Source of the DNA: Bacteriovoracia bacterium
Lineage (GTDB): Bacteria; Bdellovibrionota; UBA1018; CAIPTA01
Assembly (NCBI GenBank): GCA_050246755.1
Contig: JBFWVL010000007.1
Location: forward strand, 1-64,000
Reading direction: 5' to 3'
DNA: 64,000 nucleotides
Shown piece after piece: positions 2,480 through 14,646 of this stretch. Position numbers and translations under genes: made by a program. How positions within the stretch are numbered: position 1 is the first letter of the stretch; each line of letters starts with the position of its first letter. The notes below the pieces were generated by a model. The model made no database searches, was not told the origin of the DNA, and was given only the letters and a program-made list of their open reading frames with translations.

Positions 2480-3933
2480 TGCGTTGTCTCTTCCCATGCG
2501 TTGCCTTTTAAGGTGAGTCCTGCCTTCCTTTCCTTCATTACGGAGGCCGCCGGTAAAACTTCTTCCGCGGAATCTTCGGCTGGATCAGGGAAGCGCAGAT
2601 AAATCTCGGTGCCTTGGGCGCTAGAGGAGATATCAATTTTCCAGGCATAAAGCTTACAGACTGAGTGAACGTAGGCCAGCCCCAGGCCATGGCCTTTGGT
2701 ACGAGTGCTGCGCACGGAATCATCGCGGTTGAAAGGTTCTCCGATTCGTTCCAAAACCTGACGGGGCATTCCCGGCCCGCGATCGGCGATGCGGATCATT
2801 TGGGGCGCGGGGGAACTTATCTCCACCGGTGTTCCTAAGGGGGAATAGAGGAGCGCATTGGTAACCAGATTCATGAGCAAGTGTTCGAAGTGCTGAAGGT
2901 TACTAAGCACGTAGAAATCATTTTCCACGTTCACGACTAAGCGGCCGTTGAACTTATTGGCAAGGCGGCGCTGGATATCGCACAGGATAGTTCTGGCAGA
3001 AACGGCGTAGAGGTTTTTTTGTGTCGAAGCGCCCTCGAGCTCAGCCCAGGTGAGAAACTCGGTCACGGTTTCGGAAGCTTCCATCAATTCCTTGAGTAAG
3101 GCCTGCGCCAACTCCGGCTTGATCTCGCCAGTTTTGCGGGCGTTCGCGATTTCTCCTTCCATAATGGCCAGCGGAGTCTTCAGTTCATGGGCCATTTGAT
3201 AAGACCAGACGCGGGAGAGCTTATATCCGCGATTTACTTTTTCCATCAGCGAGGAAAAGCTGTCCACGAGCCGGCGTAGCTCGTCGCGCTTTTTGGGAAC
3301 GTGCTTGAACCGGGCCAGTTCTTTCGGGAGGGGGGGCAAGGCAAGGGCCGACTCGGGGGATATACTCGAGATAAAATTCACGAGCTGCGAGATCGGGCGC
3401 AGGAGAGTGGAAGTAAGGGCCCAGGCGGTGATCCATCCCAGCAAAAAAATACTGCCCACGAAAAATAAGTTTCCGGGCGAGAAATACGCCGGAGAAATCA
3501 GGGAATTATCCACCACGAGTCCCACCTGCAGGGTGCGGTCGGGGATATTGGGCAAAGGGATATTCAGCACGCGGATCAATTTTTCGCGGTTATAGAGCGT
3601 GATCCACTCGGAGTCGTAGGGGATGTTCTTGATCGGCAGGAGCTTTGCGCCCACGCTCTGAAAGATTATTTTTCCCGATAGGTCGCGAATCACGAAGAGC
3701 TTACCGATGCGCGATTCCCCGAGCTCGTCGGAGAGAATCTTATCCACTTTTTCGAACTCCACCTCCCGGTAGCGGTTGAGGTCGGAGGCGAGAAGGATAT
3801 TCGCGGCTTCGCGAACCTGGTTATCGACGCGCGCCAGGCGATCATTGCGGAGCAGGCGGCCGTGCAGGAGCGTGGCGAATAGGGCCACTATGGTGAGAAC
3901 CGAGAAGATGATCCAGAAAAATCTAGCCCTCAA
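2476..3933 (-). CDS. Membrane sensor histidine kinase (HAMP-HisKA-HATPase)
   Basis: Two TM helices, H-box AHELKTPL, N-box NLVTNA, G1 DRGPG, G2 GHGLGL. Confidence 0.92.
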   Translation of the reverse strand: MRARFFWIIFSVLTIVALFATLLHGRLLRNDRLARVDNQVREAANILLASDLNRYREVEFEKVDKILSDELGESRIGKLFVIRDLSGKIIFQSVGAKLLPIKNIPYDSEWITLYNREKLIRVLNIPLPNIPDRTLQVGLVVDNSLISPAYFSPGNLFFVGSIFLLGWITAWALTSTLLRPISQLVNFISSISPESALALPPLPKELARFKHVPKKRDELRRLVDSFSSLMEKVNRGYKLSRVWSYQMAHELKTPLAIMEGEIANARKTGEIKPELAQALLKELMEASETVTEFLTWAELEGASTQKNLYAVSARTILCDIQRRLANKFNGRLVVNVENDFYVLSNLQHFEHLLMNLVTNALLYSPLGTPVEISSPAPQMIRIADRGPGMPRQVLERIGEPFNRDDSVRSTRTKGHGLGLAYVHSVCKLYAWKIDISSSAQGTEIYLRFPDPAEDSAEEVLPAASVMKERKAGLTLKGNAWEETTQ

Positions 3934-4594
3934 TCCAGTAACCGATGTTGCGCTGATTTTTAATCTCGAACCCGCAATCCAGGGCCGCGATTCGTTTTCG
4001 TAAATTCGTTACGGTAGCTTCCACGAGATTCGTTTCCGAGTGGTTGATGTTTCCCCAAACGGATTCCAGCAGTTCTGGGCGACTCAGGACTTTGCCTTGC
4101 TCGTTGGAAAGCGCATTCAAAACCATGAACTCTCTCGCGGGCAGATTTTCAAATTTCGCGCCTTTGGAGATCCGGCGGTTGGTGAGGTCGAGCAGGGCCC
4201 CGCCAATTTTGCGGGTATCGCCCTGGGTGCTTGATCCGCGGCGGCTGAGGGAGCGAACGCGCGCGATCAGCTCCTCGGTCAAGAAGGGCTTTCCTAAATA
4301 ATCGTCGGCCCCTTGATTGATCAGATCGGCGCGCTCGAGGGGTGTGCTGATAGTGGAAATAATTAGGATGGGGGTCTGTGGCCAGTGCGCACGTAACTCG
4401 GAAAGCTTGTCCTTGGAATCCGTCGCTCCCAGTAGCCGGTCCAAAATCACCAGTCCGAATTTTTTAGTTTGAAGAAATTGGTACAGTTCCTCGGTGGTGG
4501 CGGCGCATTCCACCATAAATCCTTCGCCTTCGAGGGAGCGGGCGATTAGGGAGGAAAGTTTCAAATCGTCTTCGACGAGTAGGACACGCTTCAT
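3923..4594 (-). CDS. OmpR-family response regulator
   Basis: LLVEDD, ILD, GADDYLGKPF receiver, then winged helix (NLVEATVTNLRKRI...RNIGY). Start moved to MKRVLL. Confidence 0.92.
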   Translation of the reverse strand: MKRVLLVEDDLKLSSLIARSLEGEGFMVECAATTEELYQFLQTKKFGLVILDRLLGATDSKDKLSELRAHWPQTPILIISTISTPLERADLINQGADDYLGKPFLTEELIARVRSLSRRGSSTQGDTRKIGGALLDLTNRRISKGAKFENLPAREFMVLNALSNEQGKVLSRPELLESVWGNINHSETNLVEATVTNLRKRIAALDCGFEIKNQRNIGYWIEG

Positions 4595-8329: not shown

Positions 8330-9112
8330 TTAATGTATTTGCGCTCGGATCCAATTGCGCGCAGGCCATACCAGTTCGGAGGAGGCACCGGTGCTGGGAC
8401 CGGAGCCGCAGCCGTTTCCTAGGCTATGTATGGCCACGAGAGCCCTTGAGCTTTCACTGCCCAGCAGCACAGCGCCGCCCGAGTCGCCGGGACATACGTT
8501 TTGTTGGTGGGAATTTTTTTGTTCGAGGCCTACGCGGCCGTCAAATTGTTCGATCGCCTGTAGCTGTCCCAGCATTTTTCCCCAGCGCAGGGTCATGCCT
8601 CCCGTGTGTCCGTTATGGAAACCGTAGCCTACGTCGGTCACGGGGATCCACTTCCCGGAATCCAACTGGGGAAAGGCCGAGAGAGCTACCGGCCGCACCG
8701 GTGCGGGAAAGGGGGTGCTGAGCTGAATGATGGCCAGATCGTTGCGGATGATGGTGATCCCATATTGATCACGGCGGTTTGAATATTCGGGGTGCACGGC
8801 GAGGCTTACTGCCTTGGCTTTATAATAGCCTCCGCGTGGGTTCATCACGCTCACGGTCATGCTGCCGGGGCGCACGCCTGCCGCGCAGTGGCCGGCGGTG
8901 ATCAGGGTCTGTGGCGAGAGAAAGCTCGCCGAGCAAAAGCTGCCGTTACCATAGGTAAGCATAGCTACCGTGGAAGCGAGCGCGCCGCCGCGGGGCACGC
9001 CATTCCCATTCTCGATTAGGGACCGAAAATCGCTGGCGTCGGCGCTGGCGGCGGAGATGAATAAAAAAAGGCAAAGGAGCTGGGAGAGCGCAAAGCGCAG
9101 GAAGTGGGGCAT
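8330..9112 (-). CDS. Secreted trypsin-like (S1) serine protease
   Basis: Signal peptide; catalytic TAGHC, NDLAII, GDSGG; SD GGAGG before ATG 9112. Confidence 0.92.
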   Translation of the reverse strand: MPHFLRFALSQLLCLFLFISAASADASDFRSLIENGNGVPRGGALASTVAMLTYGNGSFCSASFLSPQTLITAGHCAAGVRPGSMTVSVMNPRGGYYKAKAVSLAVHPEYSNRRDQYGITIIRNDLAIIQLSTPFPAPVRPVALSAFPQLDSGKWIPVTDVGYGFHNGHTGGMTLRWGKMLGQLQAIEQFDGRVGLEQKNSHQQNVCPGDSGGAVLLGSESSRALVAIHSLGNGCGSGPSTGASSELVWPARNWIRAQIH

Positions 9113-9312
9113 TCGTCCTCCATGGCGAATTAGGGGCATGTCGATTATTTTCTAACCGCGGCGTAAATTCATTATTGCGAAGCGCCAAGCGGATTTCAAG
9201 CGAAGAGCGGCGAGAAGAGAAATTTTTAGACGAGTAAAATCCTCGAGTCCAAAAATACCCCACGGCAAATAAACAATAAATATTTTCACATGAACGCGCA
9301 GAGAATTACGCG

Positions 9313-9364: not shown

Positions 9365-9724
9365 CTAATGCAGGTAAGCGGAATTTTCCGCTTTTGCTTC
9401 CAGGCTTTCCGGTTCTTCTTTCCAGCCGGGAATGGCTTCGGAAATTTTCGCGATCAAGCCCTGGGTGCTTTCCTTCCAGCCACGAGCGGTTTGTTCCGCG
9501 AGGCGGGAAGCATCGTTCTTCCACGCTATCCCGCGCTGGCGGATTTGCGTCCGCCGCTTTTTCCCCTCGGAGGGATCCAAGAGGTACATTGCGGCCGAGC
9601 CCACCACGGCACCAGCCACAAACCACCCGAGCAGAGCTAGTCCGCTTTTGCGGCGCCCAAGCTGGGGAAGACTATCTATTGCGTCCGCTACCAGCGAACG
9701 CGTATCGCGGAAAGATTTGTTCAT
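9365..9724 (-). CDS. YtxH domain-containing protein
   Basis: GWFVAGAVVGSAAMYLLDPSEGKKRRTQIR signature. Confidence 0.8.
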   Translation of the reverse strand: MNKSFRDTRSLVADAIDSLPQLGRRKSGLALLGWFVAGAVVGSAAMYLLDPSEGKKRRTQIRQRGIAWKNDASRLAEQTARGWKESTQGLIAKISEAIPGWKEEPESLEAKAENSAYLH

Positions 9725-9747: not shown

Positions 9748-10002
9748 TTAAGCGGACTTGCGATTTTGCTGTTCGCTCTGGCGGCTGTTGCTACGAGTGT
9801 CTCCTAGGTCCGCCTCCATATCTTCTGATTTGATGGAAGATCGAGACGTGTCGCGGTCCGAGTTCATCGACGGCTTTTGCTGACGGAACTGTTGAGTCTT
9901 CGCCGAGTCCGAGCTTGTGCCCGATTGCGACTTGCTGGTTTGGCTATTGGGCATTTGGTTTTGCGAGTTATTCTGATTATTTTGATTTTTATTGTTTTGC
10001 AT
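9748..10002 (-). CDS. Small N/Q/S-rich hydrophilic, probably disordered protein (84 aa)
   Basis: Strong SD GGAGG before ATG 10002; MQNNKNQNNQNNSQNQ...; sigma54 promoter directly upstream. Confidence 0.7.
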   Translation of the reverse strand: MQNNKNQNNQNNSQNQMPNSQTSKSQSGTSSDSAKTQQFRQQKPSMNSDRDTSRSSIKSEDMEADLGDTRSNSRQSEQQNRKSA

Positions 10003-10035
10003 TTTTCCTCCTATTGGAAATGGCGCAAACAATAT

Positions 10036-10051
10036 TGCAAGAGGGGTACCT
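10036..10051 (-). promoter_or_regulatory. sigma54 -24/-12 promoter
   Basis: Minus strand AGGTACCCCTCTTGCA (GG-N10-GC), about 35 nt before ATG 10002. Confidence 0.6.
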
Positions 10052-10105
10052 AAAGCCGAAATTACGCGAAATCGCCGCGATGAGAAAGGAAAGCGATTTA
10101 GTACT

Positions 10106-10230
10106 AAAAGAAAGAGGCGGCCACAGGGATGCGCACCGCCTCTCACACACATCTCTAATTGGCAGGCTTCTTATTGCGAGAAGCCTGTGGGGAAAACAGC
10201 ATTGCCTCCATAGGGGTCAGGAATCTTCTA
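10106..10230 (-). ncRNA. Candidate Fur-regulated small RNA
   Basis: TTGACA at 10265-10260 next to a Fur-like box; internal 9-bp hairpin CAGGCTTCT/AGAAGCCTG; terminator AGAGGCGG/CCGCCTCT plus U tract at 10144-10106. The 5' end is estimated. Confidence 0.5.
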
Positions 10231-10453: not shown

Positions 10454-10513
10454 TTGGAGGTGGGGTCTGGCCCCACTGCCCGACGCATCTTAATGGATTT
10501 AGATGGAGGGGAT

Positions 10514-11557
10514 ATGGAATTCGCTTTCAGCTCCGTACGCGGAGCGCTTCTCGCTTTTTCTCTCTCGGCCCCGGCATTCGGAGCCGCCACCTACGACAGC
10601 CAATGGGCGCTCGCTAATACCGGGCAAAGAGTTTGCCGCTTCGATGGCAAGAATTGCCTCGACGGAAAAGAGGGGGCCGACACCAAGGCCCAGGAAGCTT
10701 GGAAGTGGAATCGGGACTGCTCTGCCATTGTGGTGGCGGTTTTAGATTCAGGCGTGGACCAGCGCCACCCCGACCTCGAGCAAAATCTCATTCCCGGAAA
10801 AAGCTTCGTGGATGATGTAGTGAGCAGCGACCCCCAAGACGACAATCTCCACGGAACCCACGTTTCGGGAATCATCGCCGGAGCCGGCAGCGAAAGCCAG
10901 GGCGTGGTGGGCGTATGCCGGAAGGCACGCTTGCTTCCCGTGAAAGTGGGAGACAAAGAAGGATTCCTTACCGACGCCGATATTCTCGAGGGAATCGCGT
11001 TCGCCGTTTCCAAGCGTGCGAAGGTGATCAACGCTTCGTTCGGAGGAAATACTCCCAATCAATTGGTGAAGGATGCTATGGCCAAAGCGAACGGCACCTT
11101 ATTCGTGGTGGCCGCGGGGAACGGGGATATGTTCGGGCGCGGCTTTAGCATCGACGCGAAGCCTGTGTACCCCGCCGCCTACGATCTTCCCAATATGGTG
11201 GTGGTGGCGGCCACGAATAGCCGGGACGAGCTCGGAACGTTTTCTAACTTCGGCGCGGGCCGCGTGCAGATCGCAGCGCCGGGCGTGAATATCGTGAGTG
11301 CTTTCCCGATGCGTACTACCGAGGAGATGGCGGCGAACGGAATTCCTGTCGAATCGGGAGCGCTCGACGGCACGTCTATGGCCACACCCTACGTGGCCGG
11401 CGCAGCCGCGCTTTTATGGTCTACGATTCCGGGCACCGCTGCGCTGGAGATCAAGCGCCGTCTTTTGCTATCGGTGGATAAGATCCCCGCGCTTGAAGGG
11501 AAAGTGCAAAGCGGGGGCCGGTTGAATATGGCCAAGCTATTCGTTCACGGGATTTGA
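10514..11557 (+). CDS. Secreted subtilisin-like S8 protease without an N-terminal prodomain
   Basis: Triad VAVLDSG, HGTHVSG, GTSMATP. The signal peptide is followed directly by YDSQWALANTGQ; SD GGAGGGG. Confidence 0.93.
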   Translation: MEFAFSSVRGALLAFSLSAPAFGAATYDSQWALANTGQRVCRFDGKNCLDGKEGADTKAQEAWKWNRDCSAIVVAVLDSGVDQRHPDLEQNLIPGKSFVDDVVSSDPQDDNLHGTHVSGIIAGAGSESQGVVGVCRKARLLPVKVGDKEGFLTDADILEGIAFAVSKRAKVINASFGGNTPNQLVKDAMAKANGTLFVVAAGNGDMFGRGFSIDAKPVYPAAYDLPNMVVVAATNSRDELGTFSNFGAGRVQIAAPGVNIVSAFPMRTTEEMAANGIPVESGALDGTSMATPYVAGAAALLWSTIPGTAALEIKRRLLLSVDKIPALEGKVQSGGRLNMAKLFVHGI

Positions 11558-11583
11558 TCCCGGTTTCCAGGAGGGAGAAAAAC

Positions 11584-12201
11584 ATGAAGAGAAAAATTAT
11601 CTTGCTGGCCATGGCGCTGGCCCTTGGATTGGTGTTTTGGGATATGCCCCGGGAGCGTCAGCTCGCCTCCGGGCCCAAGGTGGAGGCGCAGGACCAAATC
11701 ACTAGCGTGGCTCATGGCCCTAAGGCGGAACCGGTGGAGGCCGCGGTGGCCGAGGCGGAGGAGCACGGAGCTCTACCGGCGATTGCTCCCCGGCTTTTAT
11801 TTCCCGCGGCTAGGGTGCTTTCGCGCTTGGAATCCGCGGCCGATTCGGCGGGCAGAGTGCGGGTGATCAAAACCGTAGAGACCGCCATGAGGCAGAAATT
11901 CGTGCGCGTGGAGGAAGTTTACGTAGAGGGGAAAGCCGAAAGTGCCAACCTGGTAGAACAGAATGCCATGGTAGCCAATCAGCTGCTGGCCCAGAAGCCC
12001 GCGGCGATGGACGAAGAGCGTTTTCGCCGAATTCTCGAAGGCACCGGAGCTTCCGAGATCAAAAAAGTGGGGGAGGGCTTCCTGGTAACCTTTCAGGCTG
12101 AACCCGAAAATCCTTTGGCCCTCGATTCTTTCCTATCCCGCGTAAAGTCCGCGGTGGCCGGGCTTGTAGTGGAACCCAATTATATTCGCCGCTTGTTTTG
12201 A
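11584..12201 (+). CDS. Exported protein resembling a stand-alone S8 prodomain (I9/fervidolysin-like)
   Basis: N-terminal signal/anchor; ends ...MVANQLL...FLVTF...VVEPNYIRRLF, the usual prodomain ending; SD AGGAGG. Confidence 0.65.
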   Translation: MKRKIILLAMALALGLVFWDMPRERQLASGPKVEAQDQITSVAHGPKAEPVEAAVAEAEEHGALPAIAPRLLFPAARVLSRLESAADSAGRVRVIKTVETAMRQKFVRVEEVYVEGKAESANLVEQNAMVANQLLAQKPAAMDEERFRRILEGTGASEIKKVGEGFLVTFQAEPENPLALDSFLSRVKSAVAGLVVEPNYIRRLF

Positions 12202-12759: not shown

Positions 12760-12867
12760 CATCGCATTGCGTTGATGGCCGAATCGCCACGTCTGCTCGC
12801 GGAGGCTTGGGATTTTGCCGATTTGGGGTATAGTTCTGGCACGCATATTTCTACAGGAGGAAATCCC

Positions 12868-13482
12868 ATGGCGTTCGCACTTCCCAAATTACCTTACGAG
12901 CAAAGCAGTCTGGCCCCGAATCTCTCCAAGGAAACTTTCGAGTTCCATTACGGCAAACACCACAAAGCCTATATCGACAATATGAACAAGCTTCTCGACG
13001 ACTCTCCGTTCAAGGATGCTTCGCTCGAAGAGATCGTGCGCAAATCCTCCGGTGGCATGTTCAATAATTCCGCCCAGGCCTGGAACCATACCTTTTATTG
13101 GTACTGCATGAGCCCTAACGCCGGCGCACCTGGTGCCGGCTTAGCGAAAGCCGTGGACACCGCGTTCGGTTCGAAAGAGAAAATGATCGAGCAGTTCATC
13201 GCCCAAGGCCTCGCGAACTTCGGTTCAGGCTGGACTTGGCTGGTGAAAGATAAGGCCGGTAAGGTTTCCATCGTAAACACCTCCAACGCCGACACGCCGA
13301 TCACCAAGGACCTCGTGCCCCTCTTCGTGGCCGACGTTTGGGAGCATGCGTATTATATCGACTATCGTAACGCGCGGAAATCCTACCTCGAGAACTTCCC
13401 CAAGATCCTCAACTGGAAATTCGCTTCCGAGCAGTTTGATAGCAGTGAAGTATTCAACGCCACCAAGCTGATGCGCGCGTAA
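12868..13482 (+). CDS. sodB: Fe superoxide dismutase
   Basis: HYGKHHKAY, FNNSAQAWNH, FGSGWTWL, DVWEHAYY; SD AGGAGG. Confidence 0.95.
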   Translation: MAFALPKLPYEQSSLAPNLSKETFEFHYGKHHKAYIDNMNKLLDDSPFKDASLEEIVRKSSGGMFNNSAQAWNHTFYWYCMSPNAGAPGAGLAKAVDTAFGSKEKMIEQFIAQGLANFGSGWTWLVKDKAGKVSIVNTSNADTPITKDLVPLFVADVWEHAYYIDYRNARKSYLENFPKILNWKFASEQFDSSEVFNATKLMRA

Positions 13483-13554: not shown

Positions 13555-14048
13555 TTAGAACTTCATCGGCCTCACGAAGTGGCAGGTATAGCCGTTCGGA
13601 TGCTTCTGTAAATAATCCTGGTGATAATCCTCGGCCGAGTAAAACGGAGTGGCCGCCGTAATCTCGGTAACGATGGGTTTTTTCCAGGCCCCACTGGCTT
13701 CCACGAGGGCCTTCACTTTTTCAGCTACGCGCCGCTGTTCTTCGTCGTGCACGAAGATGGCGGAACGATAGGAGTCGCCCACGTCATTTCCCTGGCGGTC
13801 CACGGTGGTAGGATCATGGGCCTTAAAGAAAAACTTCAGGATTTCTTCGTACGAAGTTTGGGCCGGATCGAAGGTGATATCGATGGCCTCGGCGTGGCGG
13901 GTATCTCCCTGTTTTACGTGCTCATACGTGGGGTTCACCATTTTCCCGCCGGTATAGCCTACTTGCGTGTCGAGCACGCCGGGTAGCTGGCGGAATAATT
14001 CTTCCATTCCCCAGAAGCAGCCGCCGGCGAGCGTGGCGTGTTCTTTTT

Positions 14049-14052
<4 letters not shown>
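13555..14052 (-). CDS. msrA: Peptide-methionine (S)-S-oxide reductase
   Basis: [20 protein letters not shown]. Confidence 0.96.
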
Positions 14053-14507
<455 letters not shown>

Positions 14508-14646
14508 GGCTACCTCGCTTGCTATTGGTTCTTCCACGCGCTAACGCAACTCGCGCTCTTTCCTGTTTACCACACTGCAAATCCCCTGCCTATGTGGCCA
14601 AATGGGGCAGTGGAAAAATGCAGCCGCCGGGGATAGAATTTAGCCC

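Follow-up and report, generated by a model that had tools for sequence, protein, structure and literature searches.

The covalently attached prodomain of a subtilase is the textbook intramolecular chaperone, and the locus described here raises the question of where such a prodomain is to be found when the protease gene itself does not encode one. The locus lies in a 64,000-nucleotide stretch of DNA from a Bacteriovoracia bacterium (Bdellovibrionota; GenBank assembly GCA_050246755.1, contig JBFWVL010000007.1, positions 1 to 64,000), the whole of which is called the window below. It consists of a gene for an S8A subtilase and, directly downstream, a gene for a small protein that we call the partner. 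Our analyses indicate that the two genes probably form a two-gene subtilase system, produced by fission of a membrane-anchored pro-subtilase, in which the downstream, tethered prodomain would act as both chaperone and inhibitor. A first-pass annotation of the sequence had proposed a two-gene protease with a dedicated partner, and the computational evidence supports this pairing; the functions of chaperone and inhibitor we infer.

The subtilase gene and its missing prodomain

The 347-aa product of the protease gene (coordinates of all features are given in Table 1) was matched by PF00082 (Peptidase_S8) over residues 71-321 (E 6e-52, 177 bits against a cut-off of 21.8), and the same Pfam scan found in it neither the I9 (PF05922) nor the PF22148 propeptide family, nor any other domain beyond S8. 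At E ≤ 1e-5 it matched 176 subtilases in the PDB, its best solved relatives being S8A enzymes, namely deseasin MCP-01, AK.1 protease, thermitase and subtilisins. The catalytic triad (D78, H113 and S288, in DSG, HGTH and GTSMA motifs aligned to thermitase) and the oxyanion residue N203 are intact, and all four residues are invariant in 50 orthologues. Four cysteines are conserved (C41, C48, C69 and C135), of which C69 and C135 are likewise invariant in 50 orthologues. All S8 matches in an NCBIfam scan of the protease were below threshold; the best of them, at 166 bits for a cut-off of 278.75, was to mycosin (TIGR03921, the subtilase of type VII secretion) and was rejected as general S8 similarity.

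The annotation had the protease passing straight from its signal peptide into the mature N-terminus, which the translation, the Pfam scan, the PDB alignments and the orthologues all bear out. Residues 1-23 form a hydrophobic leader, and AATYDSQWALANTGQ follows directly after AFG. In the mature chains of thermitase, AK.1 protease and deseasin MCP-01 in the PDB, approximately residue 18-21 aligns to residues 49-58 of the protease, so there is no room in it for a prodomain. The start at 10514 agrees with the MDF or MEF starts of orthologues, and upstream of it the frame stays open for just 31 codons. A six-frame hidden Markov model (HMM) scan of the whole window found exactly one S8 frame and one partner-like frame, and nothing prodomain-like upstream of the protease. 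Judged from these alignments, the N-terminus of the protease is the point where mature subtilases begin.

This organisation is common to a whole group of proteases. Among 61 listed orthologues, 3 N-terminally incomplete ones were set aside, and in all 58 others the hydrophobic leader keeps its position and leads on to the QW motif with no prodomain between them; in four orthologues 65-69 residues precede the QW motif, and each of the four has the usual MDF or MEF start internally. In the 60 closest relatives (47-77% identity, 203-388 aa) PF00082 was the sole family and PF22148 was absent from all, and PF22148 together with PF00082 was found in 28 of the next 59 (at most 46% identity). In a tree of 62 catalytic domains, taken from every second row of the lists and built by a quick method under LG+G4, the split proteases (20 of the 60 closest relatives) formed one clade among 42 fused relatives (27 near and 15 long), with a Shimodaira-Hasegawa-like approximate likelihood ratio (SH-aLRT) support of 100. 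The sister of this clade, weakly supported (SH-aLRT 85), was P0226, a 451-aa S8 protein in which Pfam names the S8 domain only.

Two side observations concern these proteases. A Cys-x6-Cys insertion (C41 and C48, residues 41-48) lies just after the mature N-terminal motif; it is at least 90% conserved in the split-clade proteases and absent from the fused relatives, and may form a disulfide loop stabilising an N-terminus that is no longer held by a prodomain. Separately, P0226, P0233, P0237, P0243, P0247 and P0253 are S8 proteins of 403-487 aa, one of them labelled Oligoflexia, in which the stretch ahead of the catalytic domain resembles a beta-sandwich rather than a prodomain. These six may belong to a further lineage that has no prodomain.

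Homology of the partner to cis prodomains

For the 205-aa partner no Pfam family (at E ≤ 1) or NCBIfam family was found, and its sub-threshold Pfam matches to Guanylate_cyc, RNB and Bclt were dismissed as chance. A word-index search returned 13 relatives that stand alone (114-219 aa, 36-61% identity), one of them labelled Bdellovibrionota, among which the AM-AN-Q-L and EPNY-R motifs are invariant. A profile of the partner was then searched exhaustively against 1.84 billion representatives, which gave 167 proteins at E ≤ 1e-3, and the best 150 were analysed; 55 of these 150 have at least 300 aa and 95 have fewer.

Fused homologues, a search for which had been proposed in the annotation, were found among the long matches. 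An HMM made from the protease orthologues located an S8 catalytic domain in 54 of the 55, and in 53 the partner-like stretch ends no more than 120 aa before that domain. Pfam, run on 20 of the 55, found Peptidase_S8 in all 20 and PF22148 (Fervidolysin_NPro-like) within the partner-matched stretch in 7. The relationship is displayed in full by P0064, a fused protein of 1677 aa. Its residues 1-206, anchor included, align to partner residues 1-201 (E 9e-12), and its residues 218-541 align to protease residues 26-342 (41% identity, E 4e-68). The two window genes therefore correspond to one fused precursor cut at the junction of prodomain and mature enzyme, with the order of the parts swapped.

We also compared the partner with an independent set of prodomains, cut from the 43 nearest fused relatives of the protease, which had been found via the catalytic domain only. 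In hhalign the PF22148-type profile of these 43 prodomains aligned to partner residues 127-205 (E 6e-5, probability 65%), with the E-P-N motifs superposed. In an Atlas structure search, partner residues 70-205 matched an S8 cluster of 908 aa at its N-terminus with a template modelling (TM) score of 0.76, and the TM score between the Atlas models of the partner and of a cluster that is 100% PF22148 was 0.49. Taken together, the sequence comparisons identify the partner as a detached subtilase prodomain.

Conservation of the gene pair

The partner gene begins 26 nt after the protease stop. As the annotation had stated, it has its own Shine-Dalgarno site (AGGAGGGAG), its own export signal and a prodomain-like end, VVEPNYIRRLF-stop. 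Its product starts MKRKIILLAMALALGLVFW (MKRK plus a hydrophobic stretch). A scan for promoters and terminators detected nothing terminator-like in the gap between the genes and nothing promoter-like upstream of the protease, although it says little, the listed hairpins being intracoding. The protease and partner genes are probably co-transcribed.

A scan of genome contigs returned one locus, L001, in a Bdellovibrionales metagenome-assembled genome. Its S8 gene (2850-3929) encodes a product that runs from a leader to the QW motif, and the next gene, with a 4-bp overlap (3926-4564), encodes a partner homologue that is 36% identical. The wider neighbourhoods of the window and of L001 differ, and the pair is conserved. 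The recurrence of the pair and the 58 prodomain-less orthologues go beyond coincidence. In addition, six partner/protease pairs match in the size of their longest contig (6877, 11037, 2549, 4175, 4162 and 7253), which is indirect evidence for their co-location.

These data bear on the explanation that sequencing, assembly or gene calling broke one pro-subtilase gene in two. We found no supporting point for such an artefact and consider its chance negligible. Start, Shine-Dalgarno site and export signal are present separately in each gene, the lengths and ends recur in dozens of independent database proteins, and the same arrangement in the independent assembly of L001 refutes it. The annotation had argued that the reversed order excludes a frameshift, and the argument holds: since the catalytic gene comes first, no frameshift could rejoin the genes, and this order is kept in L001.

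Predicted complex and the C-terminal tail

EPNY is present in 34 of the 36 listed partner family members, and the stop falls exactly 5 residues after EPNY in 27 of the 36. Of the 34 EPNY-bearing partners, 17 end in F, 6 in L, 5 in I and 2 in Y (30 in F/L/I/Y). In the fused relatives the same E-P-N/D-aromatic motif stands a few residues ahead of the mature N-terminus, and the partner stop codon would therefore lie approximately at the autoprocessing site, so that the free C-terminus would mimic a cleaved product.

We modelled protease residues 24-347 (50-row alignment) together with partner residues 68-205 (36 rows) in three runs. The complex score was 0.94 in each run, against 0.44 for the best of 3 controls, a mark that 58 of 80 solved complexes attain, as do 2 of 110 mismatched pairs; these counts are only rough with custom alignments. 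At least 99% of the contacts agreed between runs, and the predicted local distance difference test (pLDDT) value of the partner was at least 91. That the C-terminal tail enters the active site, as the annotation had envisaged, is what the model predicts: residues 197-205 lie in the active-site cleft against the catalytic residues and the substrate-binding strands, with residues 199-204 paired with protease residues 150-157 and 176-177, which correspond to the two substrate-binding strands. On the protease side the predicted interface comprises D78-S79, N111, H113-G114, G202-N203 and G286-S288, and partner residues 101-104, 123-137 and 160-167 make additional contacts. The pair corresponds to the halves of a split gene and complexes of pro-subtilases have been solved, so the pass may come from likeness to those structures; the score shows this likeness and not that this particular pair binds.

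The model does not by itself separate folding from inhibition. The main alternative is a partner that is only a tethered inhibitor or self-protection factor: the protease would fold by itself, and the partner, with no chaperone role, would silence it until export, either at the inner membrane or in the periplasm. The product-like tail in the modelled cleft and the conservation of the tail favour inhibition as much as folding, and some subtilases fold and mature without a classical prodomain, so that a chaperone requirement is not guaranteed. A precedent for inhibition is the protease ASP of Aeromonas sobria. According to PMC5638518, this propeptide-less enzyme needs ORF2, encoded just downstream, for maturation, and the C-terminal region of ORF2 binds around ASP's catalytic site and inhibits it temporarily (half-maximal inhibitory concentration 84 nM). 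Against an inhibitor alone, the partner retains the whole two-part prodomain, which is more than an inhibitory tail, and its modelled contacts reach far beyond the tail. Moreover, one module does both jobs in characterised subtilisins and in ASP/ORF2 (PMC9549277, PMC5638518). We therefore regard a purely inhibitory partner as unlikely and a partner with both functions as the better account.

Probable membrane anchoring of the partner

The annotation had also suggested that the partner is anchored in the membrane, and both sequence and model point the same way. The N-termini of the 36 listed family members have a basic start, an uncharged stretch and charged residues directly after it, and no conserved small-x-small site was seen at these N-termini. 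In the full-length AlphaFold model (pLDDT 80) a helix spans residues 2-19, residues 25-66 are disordered (pLDDT below 50), and a confident fold begins at about residue 77; the tether columns are variable and gappy in the family alignment. Modelled alone from a 45-row alignment, residues 68-205 reached a pLDDT of 96.7 and a predicted TM score of 0.87, with a beta-meander and, after it, a beta-alpha-beta-beta-alpha-beta unit. An N-terminal anchor of the same type (basic start, hydrophobic helix) is present in the fused relatives. The N-terminus of the partner is thus a probable uncleaved signal anchor, with the folded domain predicted to face the periplasm.

A conserved anchor and a long, conserved tether would also suit a partner that has been repurposed, for example as a membrane dock for an active surface protease or for action on another protease, its adjacency to the subtilase gene being a historical relic. 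A third conserved membrane protein is encoded nearby, and the window also encodes a secreted trypsin-like protease (both are described below). Docking of an active enzyme is, however, incompatible with the modelled position of the tail in the S8 active site. The whole window holds one S8 gene and one partner gene, and L001 shares the pair and not the wider neighbourhood. Repurposing is accordingly a distinctly improbable account, and we return to the pro-subtilase fission described above.

Proposed mechanism

In the proposed system, the first gene would give a Sec-exported, catalytically complete S8A protease without a prodomain, and the second would supply the missing prodomain as a separate Sec-exported protein. 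The partner would be held at the inner membrane by its signal anchor and a flexible linker of about 45 residues, with the folded prodomain on the periplasmic side. Unfolded protease would leave Sec beside this tethered prodomain, which would serve as a steric folding template, that is, as an intermolecular chaperone. The free C-terminus of the partner, equivalent to the autoprocessing point of the fused precursor, would remain in the S1-S4 cleft as a cleaved product would, and in this position it would keep the protease inhibited near the cell's own envelope. Dissociation of the complex or degradation of the partner would then release active protease. No autoprocessing would be needed for the partner, because a stop codon makes its C-terminus.

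Several results weigh against this mechanism or against the homology on which it is built. There is no direct Pfam assignment of the partner to a prodomain family: PF22148 appeared in 2 of 45 partner family members, below the cut-off (best E 0.0029), and PF05922 in 0 of 45. Searched against PDB sequences, the partner profile gave 0 matches at E ≤ 10, and Foldseek searches of the PDB with the full-length and domain-only models gave 0 matches at E ≤ 1e-3. The top Foldseek rows, YebC/TACO1, RRM, HMA and ACT-like ferredoxin folds, were regarded as fold likeness of a generic kind, and a solved subtilase propeptide or fervidolysin was not among the best approximately 50 rows of each search; the only subtilase-related row was 3wqb_B (ORF2) for the domain-only model (E 0.038, probability 0.99, TM 0.51 by target). 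BLASTP of the partner against P0222, the nearest fused relative of the protease, which has a short prodomain, gave nothing, and profile comparison alone reached that group. Direct synteny of the pair was observed in only one further locus, L001. A weaker point is that the word-index search, with 8000 candidates, returned no longer (fused) relatives of the partner; the later profile search overturned this, and the negative reflects a limit of sensitivity, because the exhaustive HMM search found the fused relatives.

Comparison with known systems

The arrangement is most similar to that of ASP and ORF2. Each system has a subtilase without a propeptide and, immediately after its gene, the gene of a small exported protein (with a 26-nt gap here and a 4-bp overlap in L001). 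The two systems differ in the enzyme, since the protease described here is a 347-aa single-domain S8A protein closest to deseasin and thermitase, and not kexin-like S8B as ASP is (PMC9549277). They also differ in the second protein: PF18492 (ORF_2_N) was found in 0 of the 45 partner family members, the partner profile misses 3WQB chain B at E ≤ 10, and the partner has a probable uncleaved anchor, a long tether, an extra N-terminal beta subdomain and clear fused homologues. Operons homologous to ASP/ORF2 are reported in Vibrio, Shewanella, Chromobacterium and Pseudoalteromonas (PMC5638518), and a 2022 survey still names ASP as the exception to the rule of cis propeptides (PMC9549277).

In an Atlas feature search the partner adjoins a cluster with ORF_2_N (PF18492) in 37% of its members and PF22148 in 24% (score 0.91), a lead suggesting that ORF2 proteins, too, may be detached prodomains of a distant kind. 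The structure of ASP with ORF2 (PDB 3WQB) is reportedly the subject of Kobayashi et al. 2015, J Biol Chem 290:11130. The window pair would be a new, membrane-tethered variant of the ASP/ORF2-type external-chaperone subtilase system, apparently of independent origin. We found no paper on a split S8A prodomain gene, or on such a split in Bdellovibrionota, in a literature search that left subscription journals largely outside.

Compared with cis prodomains (PF22148, PF05922), the C-terminal half of the partner has the same beta-alpha-beta-beta-alpha-beta order and aligns by profile to the PF22148 type, and the protein ends in the E-P-N/D-aromatic motif that closes the prodomains of its fused relatives, with the tail modelled in the cleft. 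In contrast to them, it is encoded separately and downstream of the catalytic gene, and the Pfam models do not reach it. The membrane-anchored pro-subtilases (approximately 430 to 4541 aa; for example P0064, P0053 and P0056) share with the partner the basic start, the hydrophobic helix, the low-complexity linker and the two-part prodomain, and with the protease the S8 domain, 41% identical in P0064. They differ in being single chains, usually with long C-terminal adhesion or repeat domains, and in having an extra catalytic-domain loop that is absent from the window protease. The C-terminal parts of long fused relatives (P0053, P0056, P0062, P0105, P0125 and others; up to 4541 aa) contain RCC1, fibronectin-III, cadherin-like, PKD and laminin-G domains.

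A similar logic is known from the Lif/LipB lipase-specific foldases of Pseudomonas and Burkholderia, which are inner-membrane-anchored periplasmic steric chaperones encoded after the gene of a secreted hydrolase. The analogy is one of logic only, because fold and enzyme class are unrelated to those of the window pair.

The locus thus appears as a second route to the ASP-type solution, one whose origin can be traced. The ASP/ORF2 precedent lowers the surprise, and interest is sustained by a fission that can be traced, by the tether and by how broad the family appears to be. Since clear fused homologues exist, comparison can address the fission itself, how the stop codon became fixed at the processing site and how the catalytic half acquired a signal peptide. 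The pair also offers a natural two-piece system for asking whether a tethered, unconsumed prodomain acts catalytically. For annotation, hypothetical proteins of about 200 aa beside short S8 genes can be given a name in Bdellovibrionota and probably elsewhere, and for the expression of such proteases the neighbouring gene is probably needed.

Possible detached prodomains beyond the split-protease clade

The short profile matches extend the picture. Among the 95 listed matches of fewer than 300 aa, 54 end 4-6 residues after E-[PV]-[DN]-x and 14 more do so by a looser motif; only 2 of the 95 run on into the mature N-terminus. On these counts, prodomains that are detached and have a fixed stop seem to occur far outside the split-protease clade. 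An uncharged N-terminal stretch of at least 15 residues is present in 34 of the 44 full-length strict-motif cases, and the 54 strict cases end in F (17), N (11), R (10), L (8), I (4), Y (2), H (1) and K (1).

It is a tentative idea, and one we hold with some doubt, that detached prodomains tethered to the inner membrane are widespread, unannotated foldase-inhibitors of subtilases that arose by fission, with the stop fixed at the autoprocessing site and the last residue tracking the P1 preference of the protease. Being tethered and not consumed in cis, such a prodomain could serve one protease molecule after another. Among the distant stand-alone proteins (P0044-P0161), many of approximately 200-250 aa have an E-P-D-aromatic motif 4-6 residues from the end and a final Asn or Arg, not Phe or Leu. 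Their sequences suggest separate sub-families matched to proteases of other specificities.

Features and neighbourhood of the locus

Table 1 Positions of the protease and partner genes, their parts and neighbouring features in the window.
Feature	Position	Strand	Basis or remark
YtxH-like protein gene (PF12732)	9365-9724	-	
134-aa open reading frame (ORF)	9748-10152	-	
Secreted trypsin-family serine protease gene	8330-9139	-	PF00089
GGAGGGG, Shine-Dalgarno-like site 5' of the protease start	10505..10511	+	Read in the sequence
S8A subtilase gene, 347 aa	10514-11557	+	ORF and translation
Protease signal peptide, residues 1-23, end AFG	10514..10582	+	Hydrophobic leader, small-x-small end, cleavage site judged by eye
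Mature S8A subtilase, residues 24-347, plus stop	10583..11557	+	PF00082; solved S8A relatives
Cys-x6-Cys insertion, residues 41-48	10634-10657		
Partner Shine-Dalgarno site within the 26-nt intergenic gap	11569-11577	+	Sequence; six nt before ATG
Partner gene, 205 aa	11584-12201	+	ORF and translation; label P0002
Partner residues 1-20, KRK then hydrophobic helix	11584..11643	+	Probable uncleaved signal anchor (N-in, C-out; orientation inferred)
Partner residues 21-67, disordered, poorly conserved tether	11644..11784	+	pLDDT, alignment
Partner residues 68-205, folded two-part prodomain	11785..12198	+	AlphaFold model, homology
C-terminal tail EPNYIRRLF, residues 197-205, plus stop	12172..12201	+	Predicted product-like peptide for the substrate cleft
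Third gene, small membrane-anchored protein with N-terminal hydrophobic helix	12253..12759 (frame open from 12208)	+	Conserved in L001
Sigma-70-like promoter match	12807-12834		
Fe/Mn superoxide dismutase gene	12865-13482	+	Pfam
MsrA gene	13555-14052	-	Pfam
MsrB gene	14049-14537	-	Pfam

Downstream of the pair, the product of the third gene had no Pfam or NCBIfam match and is 30% identical (E 2e-23) to the product of an L001 ORF (5019-5618) that lies downstream of the L001 pair, where a GNAT acetyltransferase gene is inserted between the pair and the third gene. Its Atlas neighbours are weak and unnamed, with NTF2/SnoaL-like folds at a TM score of about 0.5. The third gene may be a further component of the protease unit.

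The secreted trypsin-family protease (PF00089, E 6e-22) is encoded 1.4 kb upstream on the opposite strand, and a second exported protease nearby is in keeping with a predatory or proteolytic way of life. The interval from this gene to the subtilase holds the 134-aa ORF, which is without a Pfam match and contains a long low-complexity stretch rich in Asn, Gln and Ser, and beside it the gene for the YtxH-like protein. On the other side, the genes for superoxide dismutase, MsrA and MsrB form a downstream oxidative-stress cluster, and the only sigma-70-like promoter match of the region precedes the superoxide dismutase gene.

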